Source: a virus
Lineage: Duplodnaviria; Heunggongvirae; Uroviricota; Caudoviricetes
DNA length: 64,000 bases
IMG/VR virus record: IMGVR_UViG_3300030332_001481
Span: 67,486-131,485 of that record
Direction: 5' to 3' (one strand)
Part shown: piece by piece, positions 136 to 54,114 of the stretch
How the letters are laid out: every line of letters begins with the position of its first letter
How positions within the stretch are numbered: the first letter of the stretch is position 1
Notes under the pieces: generated by a model
Databases searched by the model: none
What the model was told of the DNA's origin: nothing
What the model saw: only the letters and a program-made list of their open reading frames with translations
Translations under genes and position numbers: made by a program

Positions 136-505
136 GCGCAACCGGATTGCGTCTGTGGCGATCACCGCCACCAAGGACTGGGACAGAGACATCAAGGTGG
201 GATCTCGTGTTCTGGTCAAGGCCGACCCTTTTCCACACGTGTACGAAGTCACTAGCTGTGAGAGTCGGTTCCTAGGCGAGCATGACCTGTGGAACTACCC
301 CTCCCTCATGCAGAAGGGATTCGAGGCTGGGGATGAGATCTCGCCCCTCTTGGTGTTGGTTCGGTCTCGCCTTGCTCCCTCGTGGAACCGTGATGACGGT
401 GCCGTGTTTACTCGCAAAATGGACGCACAGTTTGTGCACCTGCTAACGCCTGCTGATGTGCAGGCAGTGATCGACAACCTCAACGAACTGATGGCAGAGC
501 TATGA
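128..505 (+). CDS. hypothetical protein (GTG start)
   Basis: 125-aa ORF; its stop overlaps the next ATG (ATGA at 502-505). Confidence 0.5.
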   Translation: MVKRNRIASVAITATKDWDRDIKVGSRVLVKADPFPHVYEVTSCESRFLGEHDLWNYPSLMQKGFEAGDEISPLLVLVRSRLAPSWNRDDGAVFTRKMDAQFVHLLTPADVQAVIDNLNELMAEL

Positions 506-1434
506 GCGGAAACTTCGACCGAGACGCGAGTACGATCCTCCTGTGTGTGAGTGGTAGCCGTAGCTATGGTACCGCTACACCTGCATCTGACTACGACTAC
601 CGAGGTGTTTGCATTCCTCCTGCTGAGTACTTTCTTGGGTACTTCGCAAAGTTCGAGCAGTTCACCGAGTCAGAGCCTGATGACAAGGTCGTCTACGACA
701 TCAGGAAGTTTTTCACGCTTGCGGAGAAGGCAAACCCTAACGTGGTCGAGTCGCTGTTTGTGCGCGACTGCGATATCGTCGAGCTGACCACCCTTGGGGA
801 AGTACTGCTCGAAAATCGTGACCTTTTCCTCTCCCAGCGGGTCTTTAGTACATTCACGGGATACGCCCACGCCCAGCTGAAGCGTCTTCAGTCGCATCGC
901 GGTTGGCTGCTCAACCCTCCAGGTGACAAGCCACGCAGGGAGGACTACGGGCTCCCTGAGATGTCGAAAGCAGACCAGCGACAGCTGCAGGGTCAGATCC
1001 AGTCAGTTGAGAGCAAGAACTACGAAATCTCCGATAACATGATGTACTACATCACACAGGAGAAGGCGTACTCCAGTGCGCTCAAGAACTGGCACAGCTA
1101 CCAGCAGTGGAAGAAGAATCGGAACCCTGATCGCGCTGCCATGGAGGCGAAGTTCGGATTTGACGGGAAGCACGCCTCGCACCTCATCCGTCTAAGCCGT
1201 AGCTGTATCGAGGTACTGCAGGGCAAGGGCCTGCGGGTGTACCGTGATGACGCCGAGGAGCTTCTAGCCATTCGTAATGGTGCCTGGAGCTACGACCGTT
1301 TGATGGAGGAATCCAGTAAACTCTACGCAGAGGCCAAGCAAGCGTTGGAGGTTAGTCCTATTCCGAAGCAGCCAGACCTTACGAAGCTGGACAACCTGTG
1401 CATGCGATTGGTTCGCAAGCACCTTAACCTGTAA
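502..1434 (+). CDS. Pol-beta superfamily nucleotidyltransferase-like protein
   Basis: GS-x(9-13)-DxD signature CVSGSRSYGTATPASDYDY near the N-terminus; 310 aa. Confidence 0.55.
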   Translation: MSGNFDRDASTILLCVSGSRSYGTATPASDYDYRGVCIPPAEYFLGYFAKFEQFTESEPDDKVVYDIRKFFTLAEKANPNVVESLFVRDCDIVELTTLGEVLLENRDLFLSQRVFSTFTGYAHAQLKRLQSHRGWLLNPPGDKPRREDYGLPEMSKADQRQLQGQIQSVESKNYEISDNMMYYITQEKAYSSALKNWHSYQQWKKNRNPDRAAMEAKFGFDGKHASHLIRLSRSCIEVLQGKGLRVYRDDAEELLAIRNGAWSYDRLMEESSKLYAEAKQALEVSPIPKQPDLTKLDNLCMRLVRKHLNL

Positions 1435-13352: not shown

Positions 13353-13376
13353 ACATGGATTCCGAGGGGAAATGAA

Positions 13377-13448
13377 TGACCCTGCGGAGACTCGAACTCC
13401 GTTCCAGAGGGTGAAAGCCTCTGATCCTAGCCTATAGACGACAGGGCC
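13377..13448 (-). tRNA. tRNA-Glu (anticodon TTC)
   Basis: Cloverleaf read by eye; anticodon loop CTTTCAC; T loop GAGTTCGAGTCTC; Glu-like D arm TCGTCTATAGGCTAGGA. Confidence 0.7.
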
Positions 13449-13450
13449 GT

Positions 13451-13523
13451 CGCTCCCACAGGGAGTTGAACCCTGGTTTCCCGGCTGAGAACCGGGTGTC
13501 CTTGGCCTCTAGACGATGGGAGC
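13451..13523 (-). tRNA. tRNA-Glu (anticodon CTC)
   Basis: Anticodon stem CCCGG/CCGGG with loop TTCTCAG; Glu-like D arm. Confidence 0.6.
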
Positions 13524-13527
13524 TTAG

Positions 13528-13610
13528 CGGAAGGAGGAGGAGTCGAACCCCTGTGTTTTACCACCTCCGGTGTTCAAAGCCGGCGGCCCACCACTGAGCC
13601 TTCACCTTCC
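13528..13610 (-). tRNA. tRNA-Ser (anticodon TGA), type II; imperfect
   Basis: Ser-like acceptor GGAAGG, long variable arm, loop TTTGAAC with a C.A mismatch at 31-39, T loop TTCGACT; U7.U66 mismatch. Confidence 0.5.
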
Positions 13611-13617
13611 TTACGAG

Positions 13618-13702
13618 CGGTAGTCGGAGGTCTCGATCCCCAGTGCCCTGCAGCACCGCTCCGATTAGCAATCGGGCTTGATCCCTGATCAATTCGACTA
13701 CC
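13618..13702 (-). tRNA. tRNA-Ser (anticodon GCT), type II
   Basis: Anticodon loop TTGCTAA, long variable arm, acceptor GGTAGTC/GACTACC. Confidence 0.6.
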
Positions 13703-13708
13703 AGAAAG

Positions 13709-13793
13709 TGGAAGGAGACGGAATCGAACCGCAACGCTGTTACACGTCCAGCCGCTTTCCAAGCGGTACCTATCCCAGATAGGATCACCTTCC
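13709..13793 (-). tRNA. tRNA-Ser (anticodon GGA), type II
   Basis: Anticodon loop TTGGAAA, long variable arm, T loop TTCGATT. Confidence 0.6.
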
Positions 13794-13973
13794 GAGCACT
13801 TGTTCTTGCTTTTGTGGTCCCGCTCAAGCTCCACTCCATCCAGAGTACCAGTCCAGACTTCGCTTCACAGCTTGACACTGCTTTGTCTTCAGGTGATCAA
13901 TCCTTCGCAACAACGCAGCGCCTCGGCTCTTTTGGTACCAGCCTCAGGCGGGTCCACAAAAGCAAGAACTAAA
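13794..13973 (-). other. 180-nt structured spacer inside the tRNA array, closed by 22-bp inverted repeats; no tRNA fold recognised
   Basis: CTTGTTCTTGCTTTTGTGGTCCCGC (13797-13821) pairs with GCGGGTCCACAAAAGCAAGAAC (13946-13967) across about 125 nt. Confidence 0.4.
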
Positions 13974-14046
13974 TCGGGGAGACCGGATTCGAACCGATGT
14001 CCCATGCTCCCAAAGCATGTGCTAAACCAGCCTCAGCTACACCCCG
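13974..14046 (-). tRNA. tRNA-Pro (anticodon TGG)
   Basis: Anticodon stem CATGC/GCATG with loop TTTGGGA; T arm ATCGG-TTCGAAT-CCGGT. Confidence 0.65.
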
Positions 14047-14078
14047 ATATTTGGCGGCCTTAGGGTGGCCGCCGACCC
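14047..14078 (-). terminator. GC hairpin just downstream of the minus-strand HNH gene (possible terminator)
   Basis: GGCGGCC-TTAGGGT-GGCCGCC hairpin followed on the minus strand by AAATAT. Confidence 0.3.
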
Positions 14079-14079
14079 T

Positions 14080-14643
14080 TTAGGAACCCTCGTCTAGAGT
14101 TCCGTGCCAGTAGCACCAGTTGGCCCACTGTTCAGGCAACGTCGATTGCGGATCGATGTGGAACCGCACCACGGGCAAGCTATTGGGCTTTACAGGCTTA
14201 CTGAGCAGCCGCATGTTTGCTTGAGCAGGGGTCTGGTTGCCCTTAGTGCTGTTGCACTTTTGGCATGCCATGACAATGTTCTCCCAGGTAGTCTTACCTC
14301 CCTGGGCCCTCGGAATTACGTGGTCGTAGGTGAGACGCTTAAGTGTGTGCTTCGTACCGCAGTACTGGCACCTGTACTTGTCTCGGGTGGCAACGTTGAT
14401 TCGAGAGAACTTGACGCTGCGGCGACGAGCCACTTTGCGCAGCAGACGAACTACTGCGGGCATTTTGATGGTAATAGAGATTGAGCGGATGTCTTCGTCG
14501 TACTCCTCCAAGATCTCTACCTTGCCTTGGAACAACATCGTCACCGCTCTCTGCCAAGAGACGACTCGATGAGGTGAGTACGACTGATCGAGCACGAGCG
14601 TCCTCATTTCAGTCTCCTGGTTAATCAAATAAGCTGTCACCAA
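14080..14643 (-). CDS. HNH endonuclease
   Basis: [44 protein letters not shown]. Confidence 0.75.
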
Positions 14644-14666
14644 CCCACCCTGTAAAGAGGTAAGCT

Positions 14667-15041
14667 ATGCGACCTATTCCGACTCTGAGTGGCACCTGCG
14701 TACAGTGCGAGCGATATACGATGGTCCACGACGACGACACGTGCGATGCGTGCGTATCCCGCATCCCGCCTCCCCCACGGAATCCAGGAAGGGTTCAAGT
14801 GATCCTGTCCTACACTTTCCTGGGGAGTCTTGGACTTGGGGTTTTAGCAGCCGTGCTGTACTGCTGCGCGGCCACCGTCCGGTGGGGCTTCGGCGAGCAG
14901 GTGAGCAGCCCAGCAGTATTTGGGCTTGTCATTTGGTTTGTGCTGTTCGTTGTATCCGTTGTATATGCAGCTGATGTAGTGTGTGCGCACCTGGGTAACT
15001 CTTCGAGAGAAGGCCGTGCCACTCGACCCAAAGAGTTCTGA
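14667..15041 (+). CDS. putative small membrane protein with an N-terminal zinc ribbon
   Basis: CVQCERY...CDAC, then two hydrophobic helices. Confidence 0.35.
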   Translation: MRPIPTLSGTCVQCERYTMVHDDDTCDACVSRIPPPPRNPGRVQVILSYTFLGSLGLGVLAAVLYCCAATVRWGFGEQVSSPAVFGLVIWFVLFVVSVVYAADVVCAHLGNSSREGRATRPKEF

Positions 15042-15042
15042 T

Positions 15043-15100
15043 GGTAGCCGCGGTCGGATTCGAACCGACACTGTTCCTGAAACTAGCGTCTGTTCTCAGA
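15043..15100 (-). other. tRNA 3'-half-like sequence (variable, T arm, acceptor 3' strand, encoded CCA) flanking the IS right end
   Basis: GTCGG-TTCGAAT-CCGAC-CGCGGCT-A-CCA; no matching 5' acceptor strand found nearby. Confidence 0.4.
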
Positions 15101-15236
15101 GTCTTACCTGACATTCTCATGCCGGTGCTCTGTTGACGCTTCACTCGGGCTGGTTTCGCCATCTGCCGTAAGGCAGTTGGCCAGAGCCTTCCCGTCCACG
15201 TCCTGCAACCGAGGAACCCCCGGCCGTAAGTTTATT
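15069..15236 (-). ncRNA. TnpB-associated omega RNA (right-end element RNA): scaffold 15090-15236 overlapping the tnpB 3' end, guide-like flank 15069-15089
   Basis: 147-nt block near-identical to a second copy at 29663-29809, with an internal GNRA-loop hairpin. Confidence 0.55.
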
Positions 15237-16321
15237 GCTGCGTTGAGGTCACGGTCACAGTTGAATCCGCAGACTTCGCAGTTGAAAGTTCGCTCACTGA
15301 GCGTTAGCGATCCATTTACGGCTCCACAAGAGGAGCACGTTTTTGACGACGGGTAAAATCGGTCATGCACGAATACTTCTGACCCGTACCACTTGGCCTT
15401 GTATTCGAGCTGCCTACGTACCTCAAAAAACGAAACGTCATGAATCGCCTTGGACAGCCGTCTGTTCTTTACCATACCACTGACATTGAGGTCTTCGATC
15501 CCAATGTGACCGTACGACTTAGACACGATAGACGTCATCTTGTGAAGTGCGTCTCTGCGCTGGCAAGAGATTCGGTAATACAGACGTGCAACCGCTGCCC
15601 TTTTTCTTTTGTACCTATTTGACCCCTTCACTGACCTGCTCAGTGACTGTTGGAGTCTTCTTAGTTTCCTTTCACTGTTTCTTAGTGCTCTAGGGTTAGA
15701 GAACACGGTTCCGTCAGACAGGGTTGCCAGTGTCTTTATTCCTAGGTCGACTCCGACCGAGTCTCCGTGGTTCTTGGGGACCTCGATGTCCTCCTCGACC
15801 TGGAATGAGACAAACCAGTGACCTGCCCTTTCAGATACCGTTGCAGATAGGATCCTGCCCTTGATTTTGGGCGTCTCTTTTAGCCTGATGCGTCCGAGTC
15901 TCGGGAGCTGAACATGCCGATCAAGTACCTTGATCACACCGTATAGCTTGAACGTGCCCAGGCCCTTCTTTTTACTCTTGAAGCGCGGAAATCTTGCCCT
16001 CTTCGAGAAGAAGTTGTCGTATGCTCGGTCCAGGTCGCGTAGTGCTTCCTGCATTGCACACTTGGACACCTCGTACATCCACGGGAACTCTGTCTTCTTG
16101 AGGGCATTGAGCTGCTTGTGCTGTGTCATCGCCTTGGATGACTTGTACTTAGGCAGTTCTTCCCCGGCGGCCTCCTTGGCCTTGTACTCAGCGTATTCGT
16201 CAATGCGGCGTCGAAGGCCCCAGTTAAAAGCGAAGCGCGCAGCACCACAATGGCGAACGAGATGTCCTCGTTGCTTGTTGTTAGGTCGCATCTCGACCTT
16301 GTAAGCGCGATTAATCCTCAT
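15104..16321 (-). CDS. tnpB: TnpB (OrfB) RNA-guided endonuclease of the IS200/IS605 family
   Basis: C-terminal RuvC-like split with zinc finger: SKTCSSCG...CEVCGFNCDRDLNAAINL; N-terminal region typical of OrfB. Confidence 0.85.
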   Translation of the reverse strand: MRINRAYKVEMRPNNKQRGHLVRHCGAARFAFNWGLRRRIDEYAEYKAKEAAGEELPKYKSSKAMTQHKQLNALKKTEFPWMYEVSKCAMQEALRDLDRAYDNFFSKRARFPRFKSKKKGLGTFKLYGVIKVLDRHVQLPRLGRIRLKETPKIKGRILSATVSERAGHWFVSFQVEEDIEVPKNHGDSVGVDLGIKTLATLSDGTVFSNPRALRNSERKLRRLQQSLSRSVKGSNRYKRKRAAVARLYYRISCQRRDALHKMTSIVSKSYGHIGIEDLNVSGMVKNRRLSKAIHDVSFFEVRRQLEYKAKWYGSEVFVHDRFYPSSKTCSSCGAVNGSLTLSERTFNCEVCGFNCDRDLNAAINLRPGVPRLQDVDGKALANCLTADGETSPSEASTEHRHENVR

Positions 16322-16350
16322 CACCTGAGGTACTCAGTTTACATGGTAAA

Positions 16351-16422
16351 CGTCCCCACGTGGATTCGAACCACGATTTTCGACTTAGGAGGTCGAAGTT
16401 CTATCCATTGAACTATAGGGAC
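16351..16422 (-). tRNA. tRNA-Arg (anticodon CCT)
   Basis: Anticodon stem TCGAC/GTCGA with loop CTCCTAA; T arm CGTGG-TTCGAAT-CCACG. Confidence 0.7.
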
Positions 16423-16428
16423 AACTAG

Positions 16429-16501
16429 CGATCGCGATAGGAATCGAACCTACAACCGCCCGGTTCGTAGCCGGGTGCTCATCCTGTTGAGCTTCGCGAT
16501 C
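16429..16501 (-). tRNA. tRNA-Arg (anticodon ACG)
   Basis: Anticodon stem CCCGG/CCGGG with loop CTACGAA; acceptor GATCGCG/CGCGATC. Confidence 0.75.
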
Positions 16502-16505
16502 CAAG

Positions 16506-16575
16506 AGGCGCAGGTGAGAATCGAACTCGACCTTCGCGGATTTGCAGTCCGCGTCCTTCCCAGAAGGACCGCGCC
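16506..16575 (-). tRNA. tRNA-Cys (anticodon GCA)
   Basis: Acceptor GGCGCGG, discriminator U, anticodon stem GCGGA/TCCGC with loop CTGCAAA; T stem imperfect. Confidence 0.55.
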
Positions 16576-16578
16576 GAA

Positions 16579-16650
16579 AGCGGGTAGTCGGAATCGAACC
16601 GACTTATCCAGGGTGGAAGCCTGGCGCATCGCCATCAATGCTTTACCCGC
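16579..16650 (-). tRNA. tRNA-Gly (anticodon TCC)
   Basis: Acceptor GCGGGTA/TACCCGC, anticodon stem CCAGG/CCTGG with loop CTTCCAC. Confidence 0.75.
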
Positions 16651-16656
16651 GAGAAG

Positions 16657-16740
16657 TGGGCCCTGATGGAATCGAACCACATAGCCAATTGGCACCTGTG
16701 TTACAGACAGGGGACCGTCCCAGCGATCTATTCAGAACCC
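16657..16740 (-). tRNA. tRNA-Tyr (anticodon GTA), type II; non-canonical 5' region
   Basis: Anticodon stem CCTGT/ACAGG with loop CTGTAAC, long variable arm; acceptor needs two G.U pairs; D region atypical. Confidence 0.45.
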
Positions 16741-16745
16741 GAAAG

Positions 16746-16818
16746 TGGAGCTGAGGGGAATCGAACCCCTGACCCCCTGTCTGCCAGACAGGTGCTCTCC
16801 CAACTGAGCTACAGCCCC
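16746..16818 (-). tRNA. tRNA-Ala (anticodon GGC)
   Basis: G3.U70 present; anticodon stem CCTGT/ACAGG with loop CTGGCAG. Confidence 0.75.
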
Positions 16819-16825
16819 AATTGTG

Positions 16826-16893
16826 TCGTTCGAGTGGGACTCGAACCCACGGCCTCTTGCATGCTAGCGCTCTCCCAGCTGAGCTACCGAACG
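16826..16893 (-). pseudogene. tRNA-like element with canonical D and T arms but a truncated anticodon/variable region; acceptor pairing extends to an 11-bp inverted repeat
   Basis: Only 17 nt (CTAGCATGCAAGAGGCC) lie between the D arm and the T arm, and no 5-bp/7-nt/5-bp arm can be drawn there. Confidence 0.35.
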
Positions 16894-16898
16894 ACACA

Positions 16899-16971
16899 TG
16901 TACCCGGACGGAATTGAACCGACATCCAGCGGACCACAACCGCGTGCTCTAGCCGTTGAGCTACAGGTACC
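16899..16971 (-). tRNA. tRNA-His (anticodon GTG) with genome-encoded G-1 and A73
   Basis: Anticodon loop TTGTGGT; an extra 5' G precedes the GTACCTG acceptor; discriminator A. Confidence 0.7.
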
Positions 16972-16975
16972 ACAA

Positions 16976-17048
16976 AGCTCCGAGCCGGACTCGAACCGGC
17001 CGTCTCCCACGTACCAAGCGGGTGAAGCGCCACCTCTTCTTTCGGAGC
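16976..17048 (-). tRNA. tRNA-Thr (anticodon GGT)
   Basis: Acceptor GCTCCGA/TCGGAGC, anticodon loop TTGGTAC. Confidence 0.7.
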
Positions 17049-17055
17049 AATACTA

Positions 17056-17127
17056 TTGGTCCACTGGGAATCGAACCCAGATTTCTCGCGTATCAGACGA
17101 GTGCCCTAACCATTAGACGATGGACCA
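17056..17127 (-). tRNA. tRNA-Ile (anticodon GAT)
   Basis: Anticodon stem CTCGT/GCGAG with loop CTGATAC; U1-A72. Confidence 0.7.
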
Positions 17128-17132
17128 GTGAG

Positions 17133-17215
17133 TGGTGGAGGAGGGACTCGAACCCACAATTCCCGAAGGAGCCGGATTTACAGTCCGGTGCCGCTACCTG
17201 TGCGACGTCTCCACC
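17133..17215 (-). tRNA. tRNA-Tyr (anticodon GTA), type II
   Basis: Anticodon stem CCGGA/TCCGG with loop CTGTAAA; long variable arm; acceptor GGTGGAG/CTCCACC. Confidence 0.7.
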
Positions 17216-17218
17216 CCA

Positions 17219-17291
17219 TGCTCGGAGTCGGAATTGAACCGACGACACCCTGATCTTCAATCAAGTGCTCTACCTGCTGAGCTATCCGAGC
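17219..17291 (-). tRNA. tRNA-Phe (anticodon GAA)
   Basis: Acceptor GCTCGGA/TCCGAGC, anticodon loop TTGAAGA; Phe-like overall. Confidence 0.75.
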
Positions 17292-17306
17292 CTGTAAAAT
17301 CAAGCC

Positions 17307-17567
17307 ATGACTGACTATTACGACTTTGAGTTTCCCGTGAAGCTCGATCGAAGCAGAACATCAATAGATGTTCTCACTCCGCTGAACGAGATGCATGGGT
17401 ACGTCCCGTCCTGGGATCCAGTAGACCAACAGTCTGACCATGTCAGAGCAGTCCGGACCGCGAAGGCCCAGCTCAACTCCAGCTACATCGGGGCCTTCCG
17501 CCTCCACAAGGACGGCACCATTACTCTACGGTCCCTACGGGAATCGAACCCGCCCACACCTGGATGA
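17307..17567 (+). CDS. possible small protein (MTDYYDF N-terminus) in the gap between tRNAs; 3' end overlaps tRNA-Asp on the opposite strand
   Basis: ATGACTGAC start typical of this genome; 230-nt tRNA-free gap. Confidence 0.3.
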   Translation: MTDYYDFEFPVKLDRSRTSIDVLTPLNEMHGYVPSWDPVDQQSDHVRAVRTAKAQLNSSYIGAFRLHKDGTITLRSLRESNPPTPG

Positions 17568-17601
17568 CAACCAGGCTGCCTTCCCAGCAGCATCAAGGAC
17601 C
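17529..17601 (-). tRNA. tRNA-Asp (anticodon GTC)
   Basis: Anticodon stem CCTGG/CCAGG with loop TTGTCAT; T arm GCGGG-TTCGATT-CCCGT; discriminator G. Confidence 0.7.
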
Positions 17602-17604
17602 TAA

Positions 17605-17676
17605 CAGGCCACCGAGGAATCGAACCCCGCAGACGGTCGGATTTGGAGTCCAACCCGGTTACCCAGACCGTGACCT
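17605..17676 (-). tRNA. tRNA-Trp (anticodon CCA); atypical D arm and 7-nt variable loop
   Basis: A1-U72, anticodon loop CTCCAAA. Confidence 0.55.
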
Positions 17677-17680
17677 ATGA

Positions 17681-17751
17681 TGGAGGCGGTAGGAATCGAA
17701 CCGTACTACCCTACTGGATACCATCCAGTGCTCGCCTTGAGCTTCACCTCC
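17681..17751 (-). tRNA. tRNA-like gene; anticodon uncertain (possibly GGT); irregular T region
   Basis: Acceptor GGAGGTG/CGCCTCC, GGTTCGATTCC T-loop signature, hairpin ACTGG-ATGGTAT-CCAGT. Confidence 0.35.
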
Positions 17752-17755
17752 ATAG

Positions 17756-17831
17756 CTGGCCCCCTGGGACTCGAACCCAGAACCCTTCCGTTAACAGCGG
17801 AATGCTCTAACCAAAATTGAGCTAGGGACCA
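17756..17831 (-). tRNA. tRNA-Asn (anticodon GTT)
   Basis: U1-A72, anticodon stem TTCCG/CGGAA with loop CTGTTAA. Confidence 0.7.
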
Positions 17832-17904
17832 ATACTTGGGGAGGATGGTGCCTCCCCTCGGAATCCATATTCAGTTGTCATTGTGTGGGTCTGGGCAGAT
17901 CCCA

Positions 17905-17950: not shown

Positions 17951-18326
17951 TCAAGGTTGACCTGTTATGACCTGGTCAGGTGTTGATGGGACCGCCCTTG
18001 GTACCGAGGTGATTATCGGAGGAGGTGGTAATGGGGCTGCACGCATACGGCATAAACGCACCACGCCACTCGCTTCCGGCCGATTCGGCCTGGAGCAGTG
18101 AGAGCGCCTCGATGCGCTGCGTGTTGGTGACGTTTGCCATGATGTGGGGTAGTATGCGGTGTCTTGTCGCTATGTCAAGCGGGAAGTCGATTTTTCTCGA
18201 TCGTCCTTGACTGGTGTCAGGTAGCTGCTACTCTCGGTTTCCCTTCGCAGCGGCGTATGGGACAGATAACCTGAAAAACGAAAAGTCTAATGCACGTCGA
18301 AATCGACCTGTAAACGAGACGTATAA

Positions 18327-18400
18327 GGAGAGGTGGCCGAGTGGTCGAAGGCGCACGCCTGGAAAGTGTGTGTACCTAACCGGTAATCCCACCCTCTCCG
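18327..18400 (+). tRNA. tRNA-Ser(GGA)-like element lacking a T arm (degenerate or armless tRNA)
   Basis: Acceptor GGAGAGG/CCTCTCC, Ser-type D arm TGGCCGAGTGGTCGAAGGCG, anticodon arm CACGC-CTGGAAA-GTGTG, variable arm TACCTAACCGGTA, then only ATCCCAC before the acceptor. Confidence 0.4.
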
Positions 18401-18434: not shown

Positions 18435-19058
18435 ATGGAGCACGAGATCAGCATCAGATTCGAAGGTGGGTCGCAGGCCGAGGCACGCGAGCTACTGGCT
18501 GAAGCCCTCAAGCAGCTTGAGGATGACGGGGTAGTAGCTGACTGGGGGATTGCAGCCGTGTTTCCTTGGGATGAGCGCCCTTCCCGGGCTCTCATGTTCG
18601 TCTCGTCGTTCAATGGCGACGTCACGCAGGCCCTCATGAAGCTCAATCTCATCCAAGGGATCGAGCGCCTCCATGTCGTCCCGACTCGGTGGCCTACCAA
18701 GAAAGTAGCTTCTCTTGGAGACGCTCAACTTGGAGACGCTCAACTTGATGACGTTATGAGGTATGTCACCTCAGCCTGTGATGAGGAGCCGGTGAAGACA
18801 ACGGGTGTCTTGGTCGACTGGCTGTACGACCTGCTCATGGGTGGTCGAATCGACCTCATGCAGCGGACGCTCCAAGCTCTGGACGCCGAAGTGCTACCAC
18901 TGCGGGCGCTCACCGGGACACTCTTGGTCACGAGGTCTGCAGCTGAGGATCTAGGATCGGCCAGGCGTGATCTGCTCGCTCAGCTTGAGACTGCCCTGCG
19001 TGTTCGTGAGGGTCTGTCCCCGGAGCGCGTGGCGGAAACCATTGAACGAGTGCGGTGA
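18435..19058 (+). CDS. hypothetical protein; contains a 15-nt tandem duplication
   Basis: 207-aa ORF. Confidence 0.5.
   Translation: MEHEISIRFEGGSQAEARELLAEALKQLEDDGVVADWGIAAVFPWDERPSRALMFVSSFNGDVTQALMKLNLIQGIERLHVVPTRWPTKKVASLGDAQLGDAQLDDVMRYVTSACDEEPVKTTGVLVDWLYDLLMGGRIDLMQRTLQALDAEVLPLRALTGTLLVTRSAAEDLGSARRDLLAQLETALRVREGLSPERVAETIERVR
18714..18743 (+). repeat. 15-nt perfect tandem duplication (TTGGAGACGCTCAAC x2) inside a CDS
   Basis: Encodes LGDAQLGDAQ. Confidence 0.6.
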
Positions 19059-29246: not shown

Positions 29247-29319
29247 GGGACCTTAGCTCAGCGGCTAGAGCATTCGGCCTTTAACCGAGCGGTCGTGGGT
29301 TCGAATCCCACAGGTCCTA
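29247..29319 (+). tRNA. tRNA-Lys (anticodon TTT) with an unusual C33
   Basis: Anticodon stem TTCGG/CCGAG with loop CCTTTAA; T arm GTGGG-TTCGAAT-CCCAC. Confidence 0.55.
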
Positions 29320-29323
29320 ATAC

Positions 29324-29397
29324 GGGTCGCTAGCTCAACTGGTAGTAGCAGCGGATTCTTAATCCGCCGGTTCGGGGTTCAAGTCCCCGGCGACCCA
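29324..29397 (+). tRNA. tRNA-Lys (anticodon CTT)
   Basis: Acceptor GGGTCGC/GCGACCC, anticodon stem GCGGA/TCCGC with loop TTCTTAA. Confidence 0.75.
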
Positions 29398-29453
29398 TTA
29401 CTCTACCCTGTAAAGGGTAGGTACCTGAAAACTAAATCGAGAAGCAAAAATGA

Positions 29454-29526
29454 TCGGGCGTAGTTCAGTTGGTAGAACGACGGCTTCTGGCGCCGTATGT
29501 CGGGGGTTCGATTCCTCCCGCCCGTA
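29454..29526 (+). tRNA. tRNA-Gln (anticodon CTG); positions 1 and 72 are unpaired (U.U)
   Basis: Anticodon stem ACGGC/GCCGT with loop TTCTGGC; acceptor TCGGGCG/CGCCCGT. Confidence 0.6.
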
Positions 29527-29576
29527 TGACACAGGTTGCTCTACACCTACTAAAGTAGAGACGAGACAAGTAGAGA

Positions 29577-29660
29577 GGGGACGTGGCGGAATAGGCAGAC
29601 GCAGGAGACTCAAAATCTCCCGATCGAGAGGTTGTGTGGGTTCGATCCCCACCGTCCCCA
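29577..29660 (+). tRNA. tRNA-Leu (anticodon CAA), type II
   Basis: Acceptor GGGGACG/CGTCCCC, anticodon stem GGAGA/TCTCC with loop CTCAAAA, long variable arm. Confidence 0.75.
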
Positions 29661-29662
29661 CT

Positions 29663-29829
29663 AATAAACTTACGGCCGGGGGTTCCTCGGTTGCAGGACG
29701 TGGACGGGAAGGCTCTGGCCAACTGCCTTACGGCAGATGGCGAAACCAGCCCGAGTGAAGCGTCAACAGATCACCCACACGTGAGTGTGGGGTAAGGCTC
29801 TGAGAACAGTGTAACGGATGAGCTGGATG
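29663..29829 (+). ncRNA. solo omega-RNA-like right-end fragment of an IS605-family element (last ~38 tnpB codons plus scaffold), immediately upstream of tRNA-Val
   Basis: About 105 nt identical to the tnpB 3' end, then a divergent hairpin with compensatory changes (CCCACAC-GTGA-GTGTGGG here, GGCAT-GAGA-ATGTC in copy 1), then the conserved GGTAAG.CTCTGAGAACAG and a unique 20-nt flank. Confidence 0.55.
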
Positions 29830-29897
29830 GATAGCTCAGTTGGTAGAGCGCTGGTTTTACACACCAGTGGTCGTCGGTTCGATCCCGGCTCCATCCA
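29825..29897 (+). tRNA. tRNA-Val (anticodon TAC)
   Basis: Acceptor GGATGGA/TCCATCC, anticodon stem CTGGT/ACCAG with loop TTTACAC. Confidence 0.8.
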
Positions 29898-29983
29898 TAG
29901 GTAGATAGCCTGGCTATACGCAGGTCTACCCGGACAATTAGCGTATAGGTTCGGGGTGGCGCGGACACACAACTGCCACACTC

Positions 29984-30059
29984 GGGGCCTTAGCTCAGTT
30001 GGGAGAGCTCCGGCTTTGCACGCCGGGTATTTGCGAGGGTTCGATTCCCTCAGGCTCCA
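29984..30059 (+). tRNA. tRNA-Ala (anticodon TGC)
   Basis: G3.U70, anticodon stem CCGGC/GCCGG with loop TTTGCAC. Confidence 0.7.
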
Positions 30060-30068
30060 TAAAACCCT

Positions 30069-30854
30069 TTAGTATGATTTGCCTTCGGCGTATCTCTGAC
30101 GGCGGTAGTGTCTGCCTTTACCCCTGTTTTTGCCCTTGTACGTGTCTGTAAGTGCGTGGCAGTTTGAACAGATCAATCTTAGGTTCTCATCCCTATGATC
30201 ATAGGGATCCCCATTGATATGGTCAGCTTCTAGTGGAATATCCACTCCCTGCCACTTCTTTCTGCGGCAGACGTCACATCGTAACGGCCGAGTGTGTAGT
30301 AAATAGTTCCGTAAAGTGCTCGCGGACGGATTACCTTTGCGCACACTTGAAAACGTTCTGTGCAGTGCACTGCACGTACGCGAGCAGAACTTACTAACTG
30401 GAAGTGCTTCGTACGTTGTCCCGCACTGGTTGCACTCCTTGAGGATAATCTTCTTCACCCGCTTAGGGTATTTACTGTTATTGATAGTTGCTGCACAGCT
30501 TTGAGAGCAATAACGCCTGTTATTCGCAGGTAAATCCATGAACTCTGTGCCGCAGTTTCCACAATTTATTGGCGTGCTCTTGCTCCCTCTTATTCTGGAG
30601 ACCAGAATTCCATTATTCTGTGCCCAGACACGAACTGCATTCGCAGATCTTCCTAGTTCGGTGCCAACTTCTTTGTGGGTGGCACCCTTCCGCAATAGGG
30701 AGGCTGCCTTTTCCTTGTCTTCCGTTGTCCATTTTCGCATTATTACGTGCCCAAGTAAGTTAACAGGTAAACTGCGGCCTTTGTACCGCCGATAAGACAG
30801 TTCGAGTCTGTCCTTGGGCTTCAGATAACTCGATGACAGCTGTTTCGCGTCCAA
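30069..30854 (-). CDS. HNH endonuclease with an N-terminal HTH-like region
   Basis: CDVCRRK...EADHINGDPYDHRDENLRLICSNCH. Confidence 0.75.
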   Translation of the reverse strand: MDAKQLSSSYLKPKDRLELSYRRYKGRSLPVNLLGHVIMRKWTTEDKEKAASLLRKGATHKEVGTELGRSANAVRVWAQNNGILVSRIRGSKSTPINCGNCGTEFMDLPANNRRYCSQSCAATINNSKYPKRVKKIILKECNQCGTTYEALPVSKFCSRTCSALHRTFSSVRKGNPSASTLRNYLLHTRPLRCDVCRRKKWQGVDIPLEADHINGDPYDHRDENLRLICSNCHALTDTYKGKNRGKGRHYRRQRYAEGKSY

Positions 30855-30882
30855 TGCGCAGCTGGATCGATAAATGAGATGT

Positions 30883-30955
30883 TCGGGCTTAGTTCAGTTG
30901 GTAGAACGCCAGGTTTTGGTTCTGGATGTCGGGGGTTCAAATCCCTCAGCCCGTG
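30883..30955 (+). tRNA. tRNA-Gln (anticodon TTG); positions 1 and 72 are unpaired (U.U)
   Basis: Anticodon stem CCAGG/TCTGG with loop TTTTGGT; same body as the tRNA at 29454. Confidence 0.6.
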
Positions 30956-31033
30956 TGAAATAGGTCGCTCTATACCTATAAGTATAGACAAGTCCCTCCG
31001 CCCGTTTCAAAACAGGAAGGAAAGGTAGAACTC

Positions 31034-52698: not shown

Positions 52699-54114
52699 AT
52701 GCGTAACATGAAGAATACGTTCCACGGAGTCGACTTCTACTCCTCCACGTTCGATCCCAAGACCGGTGTCATCGTCCGGGATATCGAGGTCACGGAGGGC
52801 ACGGACAGCTTCGACCAATTCGACGTGATGCATGCCACCATCGCTCGTGTGCTTGGTGTGTACGAGAAGGCAATCAATCCGCCGGAAGTACCTGCGTACT
52901 CCAACAAGTACCAGGAGGCGAAGTACATTGTCGAAAAAGACTTCGAGGCGTTTCTCAAGCTGAGAGATGACTGGGAAGAGAGGTACGGAATCAAGCGCGG
53001 CAACGACTGGATTCACCTCCAGGAGGCACGCCAGTCCTACGCATGGTCCCCCGTCCCGGAGACCATCGACGTCAAGATCACCGACTGGTGCAACTTCGGG
53101 TGCGATTTCTGTTACATGTCTTCCACCAAGAAGGGGAAGCATGCACCGCCCGAACTGATCGAGAACATTATCACGGGGTTCGACCAGTCGCCCTACCAGA
53201 TCGCCTTCGGGGGAGGCGAGCCCTGTGCACACCCCGAGTTTCCCCACATTCTGAAGACCACGGCAAAGTTGGGTTCCGTTCCCAACTACACCACCGCAGG
53301 TCACATCTTCCGTGAGGACGTGATCAAGGCGACCAACGAGGACTGCGGCGGTGTGGCCATCACGTACCATGCTTGGGCGGGCCTCAAGAAGTTCGTGGAG
53401 ACGTACACAAAGTGGGACAAGGCACTTCGCCCCGGTCTTCAGCGGAACGTCCACGTCATCGCTGACAACAACGTGGCGGCAAACCTGCTCGATCTCATGA
53501 ACTCGGGTCTGCGTAACCTGAACATCGTTCTCCTGGCCTACTACTCTGACGTGGGCTTCGCGCAGTCTTCGGGACATCCCTCGAAGTACGTGTACAACGA
53601 GATGCTCCCGCGAGTCATCGCCGAGGTGCAGGAGAAGGCCAACTTCCGTATCGCCTTCTCTGAGGGCCTTGTCCCCTACTTCATGTCCCGTGACATCGAG
53701 GGTGTGGGCAAGAAGTACATGACGCGGCAGGAAGGCCTGTTCTCCCTCTACGTGGACGACCAGGGCTTCTGCTCTCACTCTTCGTTCGCTCCGGTCGACA
53801 CTGACCTGTCGAAGGAGAATGAGCAGTCCCTGCCGTACAGGGAGAAGCACCTGCGGAGTGTCAACCTCTACAGCACCTCCATCCAGGAGATCTGGGACCG
53901 CGCCACCTTCGCCCCGTCTTATTCGTTCATGAACGGGTACTCGCTGTGCGACCAGTGCGAGCACCAGTTCGACTGCCACGCTCCTGCCTTCGACCACTTC
54001 ATGATGTGCGGGTTCAACGACCACAACAAGATCCCGTCGAAGAGGCCCGTGGAGTACACGCCTCACCCTGACCTTGAGGGCGGGCTGGTTCAGCTACGAA
54101 AGAAGGGTTCCTGA
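52699..54114 (+). CDS. radical SAM enzyme (471 aa) with an extra C-terminal Cys cluster (possible SPASM/twitch-like)
   Basis: CNFGCDFC (CxxxCxxC) near residue 133; G-rich SAM-binding stretch FGGGEP; C-terminal CDQCEHQFDCH...MMCG. Confidence 0.8.
   Translation: MRNMKNTFHGVDFYSSTFDPKTGVIVRDIEVTEGTDSFDQFDVMHATIARVLGVYEKAINPPEVPAYSNKYQEAKYIVEKDFEAFLKLRDDWEERYGIKRGNDWIHLQEARQSYAWSPVPETIDVKITDWCNFGCDFCYMSSTKKGKHAPPELIENIITGFDQSPYQIAFGGGEPCAHPEFPHILKTTAKLGSVPNYTTAGHIFREDVIKATNEDCGGVAITYHAWAGLKKFVETYTKWDKALRPGLQRNVHVIADNNVAANLLDLMNSGLRNLNIVLLAYYSDVGFAQSSGHPSKYVYNEMLPRVIAEVQEKANFRIAFSEGLVPYFMSRDIEGVGKKYMTRQEGLFSLYVDDQGFCSHSSFAPVDTDLSKENEQSLPYREKHLRSVNLYSTSIQEIWDRATFAPSYSFMNGYSLCDQCEHQFDCHAPAFDHFMMCGFNDHNKIPSKRPVEYTPHPDLEGGLVQLRKKGS

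Follow-up and report, generated by a model that had tools for sequence, protein, structure and literature searches.

Phage T4 carries within its tRNA cluster the stable RNAs C and D, tRNA-like small RNAs that are expressed and stable and whose function is unknown. The element described here is likewise of tRNA-like character and lies beside phage tRNA genes, but it is known from sequence alone.

Other jumbo phages and T4-like phages are reported to contain tRNA pseudogenes (PMC5852040, PMC1524935). Xanthomonas phage XacN1, with a genome of 385 kb, carries many tRNAs, CUA suppressor tRNAs and one pseudogene (PMC5852040), and in this it resembles the phage under study. Like our element, the pseudogenes of XacN1 and T4-like phages are extra tRNA-like sequences near big tRNA arrays in very large genomes, which homology identifies but which fail the criteria of tRNA-finding programs (PMC5852040, PMC1524935). 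In contrast, the lesion in our element can be defined to the base, and the rest of the sequence is undamaged and of a bacterial type, unlike the other tRNAs of the phage.

Functional tRNAs without a T arm are known only from metazoan mitochondria, where they are served by a dedicated EF-Tu (PMC1636415, PMC4013460). Nematode mitochondrial tRNAs of this kind share with the element a tRNA shape that lacks the T arm. However, these AT-rich tRNAs, found genome-wide, contain a short TV-replacement loop and work together with the dedicated EF-Tu1 (PMC1636415, PMC4013460), whereas the element is a lone GC-rich copy that keeps a variable-arm hairpin and half of a T stem.

Pieces of serine tRNA also occur in phage genomes as attachment (att) sites, as in Rhizobium phage RHph_TM3_3_3. 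In such att fragments a single end of the tRNA is kept in one piece, and an integrase gene lies next to it, whereas the element has both ends, an internal gap and no integrase beside it. In RHph_TM3_3_3 (MN988468), the fragment is an unannotated 5' half of tRNA-Ser(GCU) at 2501-2545 that stops in the anticodon stem, approximately 100 nt from the integrase. It is likely an attP core that uses the tRNA 5' half where the 3' half is usual.

Genomic setting

The window is a stretch of 64,000 nucleotides (positions 67,486 to 131,485 of IMG/VR record IMGVR_UViG_3300030332_001481) from a marine genome of about 388 kb, represented by a 388.5-kb Tara Oceans contig. The source is assigned to the jumbo phages because the window of this contig contains tail-fibre-like genes, a thymidylate synthase gene, a CUA suppressor tRNA, and two arrays with about 29 tRNA genes. 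The element had been described as lying on the strand opposite to the tRNA arrays, which holds for the adjacent array on the minus strand but not for the second array, which is on the plus strand (Table 1).

The element sits in a divergent intergenic region of 294 nt, flanked by a minus-strand ORF of 54 aa and a plus-strand ORFan of 207 aa. Neither ORF matches any family, and the 207-aa protein has no homologue but itself among 5.8 billion proteins. If both are transcribed together, the element would lie in the 5' leader of the 207-aa ORF. A good sigma-70-like promoter precedes the 54-aa ORF and is directed away from the element. No plus-strand promoter upstream of the element reached the threshold of the scan, and no recognizable promoter or terminator delimits a discrete small RNA. 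Also, the intergenic region as a whole does not appear to form a larger structured RNA (z=-2.3, which is unremarkable).

INPHARED contains no relative of the phage, close or distant. Megablast searches of INPHARED with 1.2 kb and 24.6 kb of sequence gave no match, and scans of IMG/VR with two neighbouring proteins found nothing. A 579-aa protein has no INPHARED homologue by tblastn and two remote homologues elsewhere, on contigs that lack synteny, and the AAA protein of the phage has generic AAA matches only.

Anatomy of the element

The element reads GGAGAGG TG GCC GAGTGGTCGAA GGC G CACGC CTGGAAA GTGTG TG TACC TAACC GGTA ATCCCAC CCTCTCC G. Its parts, and the neighbouring features with which it is compared, are listed in Table 1.

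Table 1. Positions of the tRNA-like element, its parts and neighbouring features within the 64,000-nt window
Feature	Position	Strand	Basis
tRNA-Ser(GGA)-derived element, 5' half of T arm absent (probable pseudogene)	18327..18400	+	Sequence, Rfam RF00005, bacterial alignment
5' acceptor strand GGAGAGG; 7/7 pairs with 18393-18399	18327..18333	+	Sequence
D arm GCC / GAGTGGTCGAA / GGC; 3-bp stem, 11-nt class II loop, Ser-type	18336..18352	+	Identical to bacterial core
Anticodon arm CACGC / CTGGAAA / GTGTG; 5-bp stem; GGA at 18361-18363	18354..18370	+	Identical to bacterial core
Variable region TG TACC TAACC GGTA; 4-bp hairpin; 3' end (about 1-2 nt) apparently deleted	18371..18385	+	Sequence
ATCCCAC, T-arm remnant (last two T-loop bases AT, 3' T-stem strand CCCAC)	18386..18392	+	Bacterial alignment
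3' acceptor strand CCTCTCC and discriminator G; no encoded CCA; TTT follows	18393..18400	+	Sequence
Sigma-70-like promoter TTGACA-16-CATACT, directed away from the element toward the 54-aa ORF and minus-strand array	18151..18178	-	Promoter scan
207-aa ORFan, start 35 nt past the element	18435..19058	+	No family; sole homologue is itself
tRNA array adjacent to the element	13377-17831	-	ARAGORN
Phage's own tRNA-Ser(GGA), intact, divergent	13710..13793	-	Rfam match, alignment
HNH endonuclease, inside minus-strand tRNA array	14080-14643	-	Domain match
TnpB (IS605 OrfB and Cas12f1-like TNB domain), inside minus-strand tRNA array	15104-16324	-	Domain matches
Second tRNA array	29247-30956	+	ARAGORN

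The 7-bp acceptor stem, the D arm, and the anticodon arm with its 7-nt loop are all present (7/7, 3/3 and 5/5 pairs), and all 19 of the remaining stem pairs are Watson-Crick or G-U. The features that mark a class II serine tRNA are found as well, namely a long variable arm with a 4-bp hairpin, G73 at 18400 and the serine anticodon GGA. Both tRNA ends are retained, as 59 nt at the 5' end and 15 nt at the 3' end, and they meet at a deletion junction at 18385/18386.

Between the variable hairpin and the 3' acceptor strand there are only seven nucleotides, ATCCCAC. A canonical T arm, with a 5-bp stem and a TΨC loop, is absent, and no alternative T stem can be drawn. Our reading of the sequence thus agrees with the initial annotation that the acceptor, Ser-type D, anticodon (CTGGAAA) and variable arms are intact, and re-reading 18327-18400 for a normal T arm, as had been proposed, found none. 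The same annotation held that ATCCCAC replaces the T stem-loop; the T arm is indeed missing, but the heptanucleotide is a leftover of that arm and not a replacement.

In permissive searches the element scores 34.4 bits with the Rfam tRNA model, whose gathering score is 29; the E-value is 1.9e-4 in 6.5 kb and 6.9e-6 locally. This score depends on a local-end jump over 19 model positions in the variable and T region, and it is the lowest of the RF00005 matches in the region. The element is not among the matches when the whole window is run at the Rfam gathering score with default filters. ARAGORN in bacterial mode never calls it, even at lowered thresholds, and in mitochondrial mode gives only a mispaired call of 68 nt.

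Comparison with bacterial tRNA-Ser(GGA) genes

A search of 185,579 species genomes was conducted with a pattern that spans the D arm to the anticodon arm (34 nt, of which 32 bases are specified). This core is found in at least 120 bacterial genomes, which belong to Rhodobacteraceae, other Alphaproteobacteria, Gammaproteobacteria, and Bacteroidota. Identity inside the 34-nt core is partly built in by the search, but its presence in at least 120 genomes, and the agreement outside it, are not. The best bacterial genes also agree with the element in the acceptor stem and the 3' remnant, and over the aligned columns the element is 94-97% identical to its best matches among those listed, which come from a Rhodobacteraceae genome, a Halieaceae MAG, and an Erythrobacter.

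The matches listed yielded 87 distinct tRNA-Ser(GGA) genes, and the T arm was parsed in 71 of these. Among the matches listed, GGAGAGG is the commonest acceptor type (30 of the 87), variable regions are 16-21 nt long, and the 3' ends follow the form G(N)GGG-TTCGAAT-CCC(N)(N)-acceptor-G. Within the parsed genes from these matches, the T loop is TTCGAAT in 67/71 and TTCAAAT in 4/71, and the 3' T-stem strand is CCCNN, CCCAC included, in 66/71. Because ATCCCAC conforms to the bacterial consensus '..AT CCCNN', it represents the end of the T loop followed by the 3' T-stem strand.

When the element is aligned with the 87 distinct bacterial genes, its best matches included, a single block is missing and the rest is collinear and near-identical. 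The missing block is 11-12 nt long; it starts in the last part of the variable region, runs through the 5' strand of the T stem, and takes in TTCGA from the T loop. Judged from the aligned sequences, the simplest reconstruction of the deletion would be GGTA[CCGTGGGTTCGA]ATCCCAC, with the missing block in brackets.

Compared with tRNA-Ser(GGA) genes of Rhodobacteraceae, Halieaceae and Flavobacteriia, the element has identical or near-identical acceptor, D and anticodon arms, G discriminator, and 3' T-stem strand. Unlike them, it lacks the 5' T-stem strand, TTCGA and CCA, has a variable-arm sequence of its own, and is borne by a phage in non-homologous flanks. A CCA is encoded in 83 of 112 bacterial copies among the matches listed, and in blastn searches of the flanks, homology between this locus and the 120 listed bacterial loci is limited to the tRNA body. 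The exact variable arm has no match in the 185,579 species genomes, nor in the viral and metagenome collections searched. The likeness to bacterial tRNA-Ser(GGA) that had been noticed at the outset is therefore borne out by the core and by the 94-97% identity, and the suggested search for a donor gave clear similarity but no donor with this variable arm. No host can be named because the core pattern spans Alphaproteobacteria, Gammaproteobacteria, and Bacteroidota.

The phage's own tRNA-Ser(GGA) differs from the element in the acceptor, the D arm, the anticodon stem, and position 32, so that the difference between the two that was pointed out earlier is confirmed by alignment. Because this resident gene is intact, the element is redundant. 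The phage also encodes a tRNA-Ser(UGA). A comparison was possible for a few of the resident tRNAs, which have 66-74% identity to their bacterial counterparts, and by such alignments the element is far more bacterial-like than they are. None of the resident tRNAs encodes CCA, as is the case for the element, and no leader motif common to the element and the other phage tRNAs was found. Because the D and anticodon arms equal the bacterial consensus, they weakly hint that the phage may acquire tRNA genes from hosts of Proteobacteria or Bacteroidota type.

The deletion in independent assemblies

The intergenic region with the element is identical, base for base, in contigs from five samples that were assembled with different assemblers (ENA ERZ907665, ERZ2772639 and ERZ27249153, JGI 3300006754, and Logan ERR2752160, whose contig begins within the element). 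The strains in these samples differ at 0-4 positions per 6.6 kb, and none of the differences is in the element. The source contigs of two cluster variants of the 207-aa protein differ at 3-4 positions per 6.6 kb, with none in the element. Because the sequence is identical in five assemblies, the loss of the T arm is real, and an assembly artefact is ruled out.

Only such near-clonal copies were found; no diverged relative is present in any collection searched, and pattern scans of IMG/VR and of JGI metagenome contigs revealed no T-less element elsewhere.

Predicted fold and consequences for translation

RNase P, the CCA-adding enzyme and EF-Tu depend on the stack of acceptor and T stems and on the elbow. 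The minimum-free-energy fold predicted for the element, although such folding is an imperfect guide for tRNAs, is a rod of -34.8 kcal/mol, as compared with -23.7 kcal/mol for a cloverleaf without the T arm. In the rod, the orphaned CCCAC pairs with U8-G9-G10, and the strands of the variable arm pair into the D region. Pairs of the D stem and of the variable stem have an ensemble probability of about 0. When 12 nt are restored, the minimum-free-energy fold becomes a cloverleaf with a T arm. The folding proposed in the initial annotation thus predicts a rod-like misfold that is reversed by the added nucleotides. The stability of the fold of the element corresponds to z=-3.8.

A role for the element in translation appears very unlikely, because the T arm and the elbow are lost and the transcript is predicted to misfold. 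Mitochondrial TV-replacement loops have about 6-12 nt, whereas the corresponding part of the element has 22 nt, made up of a hairpin and half of a T stem. No EF-Tu-like gene is present among the scanned ORFs of the window.

Origin and possible functions

The element is probably a tRNA-Ser(GGA) pseudogene that arose by a short internal deletion. Its homology to a functional tRNA gene family runs clearly from end to end, and the lesion takes away an essential part of the structure. The starting point would have been a second tRNA-Ser(GGA) gene, of bacterial type, in the marine jumbo phage of about 388 kb. A single internal deletion of 11-12 nt would then have disabled this gene by removing the last one or two bases of the variable region, the whole 5' T-stem strand, and the first five T-loop bases. 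With the T arm and the elbow between the D loop and T loop lost, a transcript, if made, would presumably be no substrate for RNase P or the CCA-adding enzyme and no ligand of EF-Tu, and would collapse into a rod-like hairpin. The region appears to be a hotspot where tRNA genes turn over and mobile elements are active, and this activity could plausibly have caused the double-strand break or the slippage that led to the deletion.

Phages usually purge useless DNA, which counts against a pseudogene, as the element is fixed in five sampled populations. Its presence in all five populations says little, because they are near-clonal, with 3-4 SNPs per 6.6 kb. Outside the deletion the element is flawless, as would be expected if the lesion is very recent or if constraint continues. 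Three candidates had been offered in the initial annotation: a captured host tRNA fragment left by integration or recombination, a pseudogene and a functional armless tRNA-like RNA. The internal deletion of 11-12 nt, the predicted misfold, and the redundancy with the resident isoacceptor favour the pseudogene; the integration relic did not hold up, and nothing that we found favours a functional armless RNA. If it is a pseudogene, the matter is one of annotation only, in that the element should not raise the tRNA count to 30, and it provides an example of how tRNA genes turn over by birth and death in a marine megaphage without cultured relatives.

Alternatively, a transcribed T-less tRNA-Ser might be a functional mimic that takes no part in translation, and instead decoys or sponges a host factor that reads the acceptor end, the variable arm or the anticodon loop. 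We regard this as unlikely. The target might be a nucleotidyltransferase toxin of the MenT/AbiE type, an anticodon nuclease, or SerRS, with exclusion from the ribosome as part of the design, and this proposal is equally unlikely. The idea draws on the perfect preservation of the remaining arms, which are identical to those of host-type tRNA-Ser(GGA), whereas the working tRNA-Ser(GGA) of the phage is divergent, including at anticodon-loop position 32. The phage also carries an RNA-repair nucleotidyltransferase of the RlaP type, and phage tRNAs are known as tools of counter-defence (see also PMC10264068, PMC11464382). Moreover, the toxin MenT3 prefers tRNA-Ser and does so via the variable arm; however, it reads the geometry of the variable arm relative to the T arm (PMC11541572), which is lost in the element. 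Such recognition would need the D and variable stems, which are lost in the predicted fold. No conservation evidence supports the idea, no recognizable promoter or terminator would define a separate small RNA, and the contigs of IMG/VR and JGI contain no comparable T-less tRNA-Ser. It is distinctly unlikely that an exact look-alike of the host tRNA is kept deliberately as a decoy for a defence enzyme directed at tRNA-Ser, or to titrate SerRS, while the resident tRNA-Ser(GGA) does the decoding. If true, an expressed and stable tRNA-Ser mimic without a role in translation would be a notable addition to the counter-defence repertoire of phages.

The element might also act in cis, as a tRNA-like fold in the untranslated leader of the 207-aa ORF that processes or stabilizes its mRNA, since it is on the same strand, precedes the ATG at 18435 by 35 nt without an intervening terminator, and has a strongly stable fold (z=-3.8). 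This is very unlikely. The stability is that of a GC-rich former tRNA, and processing of the RNase P type requires the stacked acceptor and T stems and the elbow (a textbook requirement; see also PMC4919913). In addition, an upstream promoter on the plus strand did not reach the scan threshold, and the downstream gene, an ORFan, provides no comparative support.

It is highly improbable that the element is a relic of recombination or integration, either as a piece of host tRNA-Ser(GGA) that is, or stems from, an att site or as the scar left when an element integrated in the T loop was excised imprecisely. T loops are textbook targets of integrases, and temperate phages, such as RHph_TM3_3_3, do carry tRNA-Ser fragments as att sites. 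However, the element is not an att-type fragment, because its flanks have no homology to the listed bacterial loci, no integrase is nearby (or anywhere among the 31 window ORFs scanned, neighbours included), and both tRNA ends are present with only an internal 11-12 nt missing. The window lacks a second copy of either tRNA half, and the missing CCA differs from the 83 of 112 bacterial copies with CCA among the matches listed.

Finally, it is scarcely conceivable that the element accepts serine and serves the ribosome as a true tRNA without a T arm. It keeps identity elements for SerRS, namely the acceptor stem, the discriminator G73, and the long variable arm, but no precedent is known from bacteria or phages, the T arm is required by EF-Tu, RNase P, and the CCA-adding enzyme of bacteria, the cases known so far depend on a specialized EF-Tu (PMC1636415) of which none is among the scanned window ORFs, the architecture is unlike that of mitochondrial TV-replacement loops, and the resident tRNA-Ser(GGA) makes it redundant.

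Mobile elements and tRNA remnants

Decay and rearrangement of tRNA genes appear to be ongoing near the probable pseudogene, because genes for TnpB and an HNH endonuclease, an orphan TnpB end, a headless tRNA fragment, and a degenerate tRNA-Tyr-like sequence are found nearby.

The tnpB insertion directly follows tRNA-Arg(CCU), with a TTTAC junction. A sub-threshold match to the Rfam 'Transposase-2 RNA' model at 15072-15142 (minus strand), at the 3' end of tnpB, is probably an omega RNA. An orphan copy of this tnpB 3' end and omega-RNA region is located between tRNA-Leu(CAA) and tRNA-Val in the second array, where tnpB is absent. The two copies, 29663-29809 (plus strand) and 15090-15236 (minus strand), are 94% identical over 147 nt, and the orphan could be an IS right end or a stand-alone omega RNA.

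A headless 3' fragment of a tRNA at about 15029-15069 (minus strand) abuts the right end of tnpB and consists of a T arm (GTCGG-TTCGAAT-CCGAC), the acceptor strand CGCGGCT, A, and an encoded CCA. No matching 5' half was found. The fragment is ruled out as a partner in trans of the element at 18327, as CGCGGCT is not complementary to GGAGAGG.

Between tRNA-Gly(UCC) and tRNA-Ala(GGC) is a class II sequence that resembles tRNA-Tyr(GUA), at 16651-16744 (minus strand). It has the acceptor GGGTTCT/AGGGCCC, the loop CTGTAAC, a long variable arm, and an imperfect T stem (TGTGG/CCATC). It is called by neither ARAGORN nor Rfam and is possibly a decaying tRNA.

A perfect inverted repeat of 16 nt, ATGGATTCCGAGGGGA, occurs at 13355-13370 (plus strand) and 17853-17868 (minus strand), and thus brackets the minus-strand array. 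The similarity extends to 34 nt at 82%, and the window has two copies of the repeat against 0.03 expected. It is possible that the minus-strand array forms a cassette that can invert or move.

Other tRNAs and RNA-related genes of the phage

Rfam detected three tRNAs that ARAGORN missed, all on the minus strand, at 13710-13793, 16826-16893 and 17681-17751. The first is the resident tRNA-Ser(GGA), which scores 40.7 bits with the tRNA-Sec model, below the gathering score of 47. The others score 47.6 and 36.2 bits, respectively, with the tRNA model, both over threshold, and the match at 17681-17751 shares a few bases with the ARAGORN call of a tRNA-Trp.

A tRNA at 63394-63469 (plus strand) has the anticodon CUA of an amber suppressor, is labelled 'Pyl' by ARAGORN, and scores 56.8 bits with the Rfam tRNA model. 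It resembles the CUA suppressor tRNAs of XacN1, and one may ask whether UAG is read through or recoded in the phage studied here.

The RlaP-type nucleotidyltransferase, which belongs to an RNA-repair pathway, is encoded at 502-1434 (plus strand) and suggests that the phage invests in repair of RNA or tRNA. A gene for a radical SAM protein is located at 52699-54114 (plus strand).
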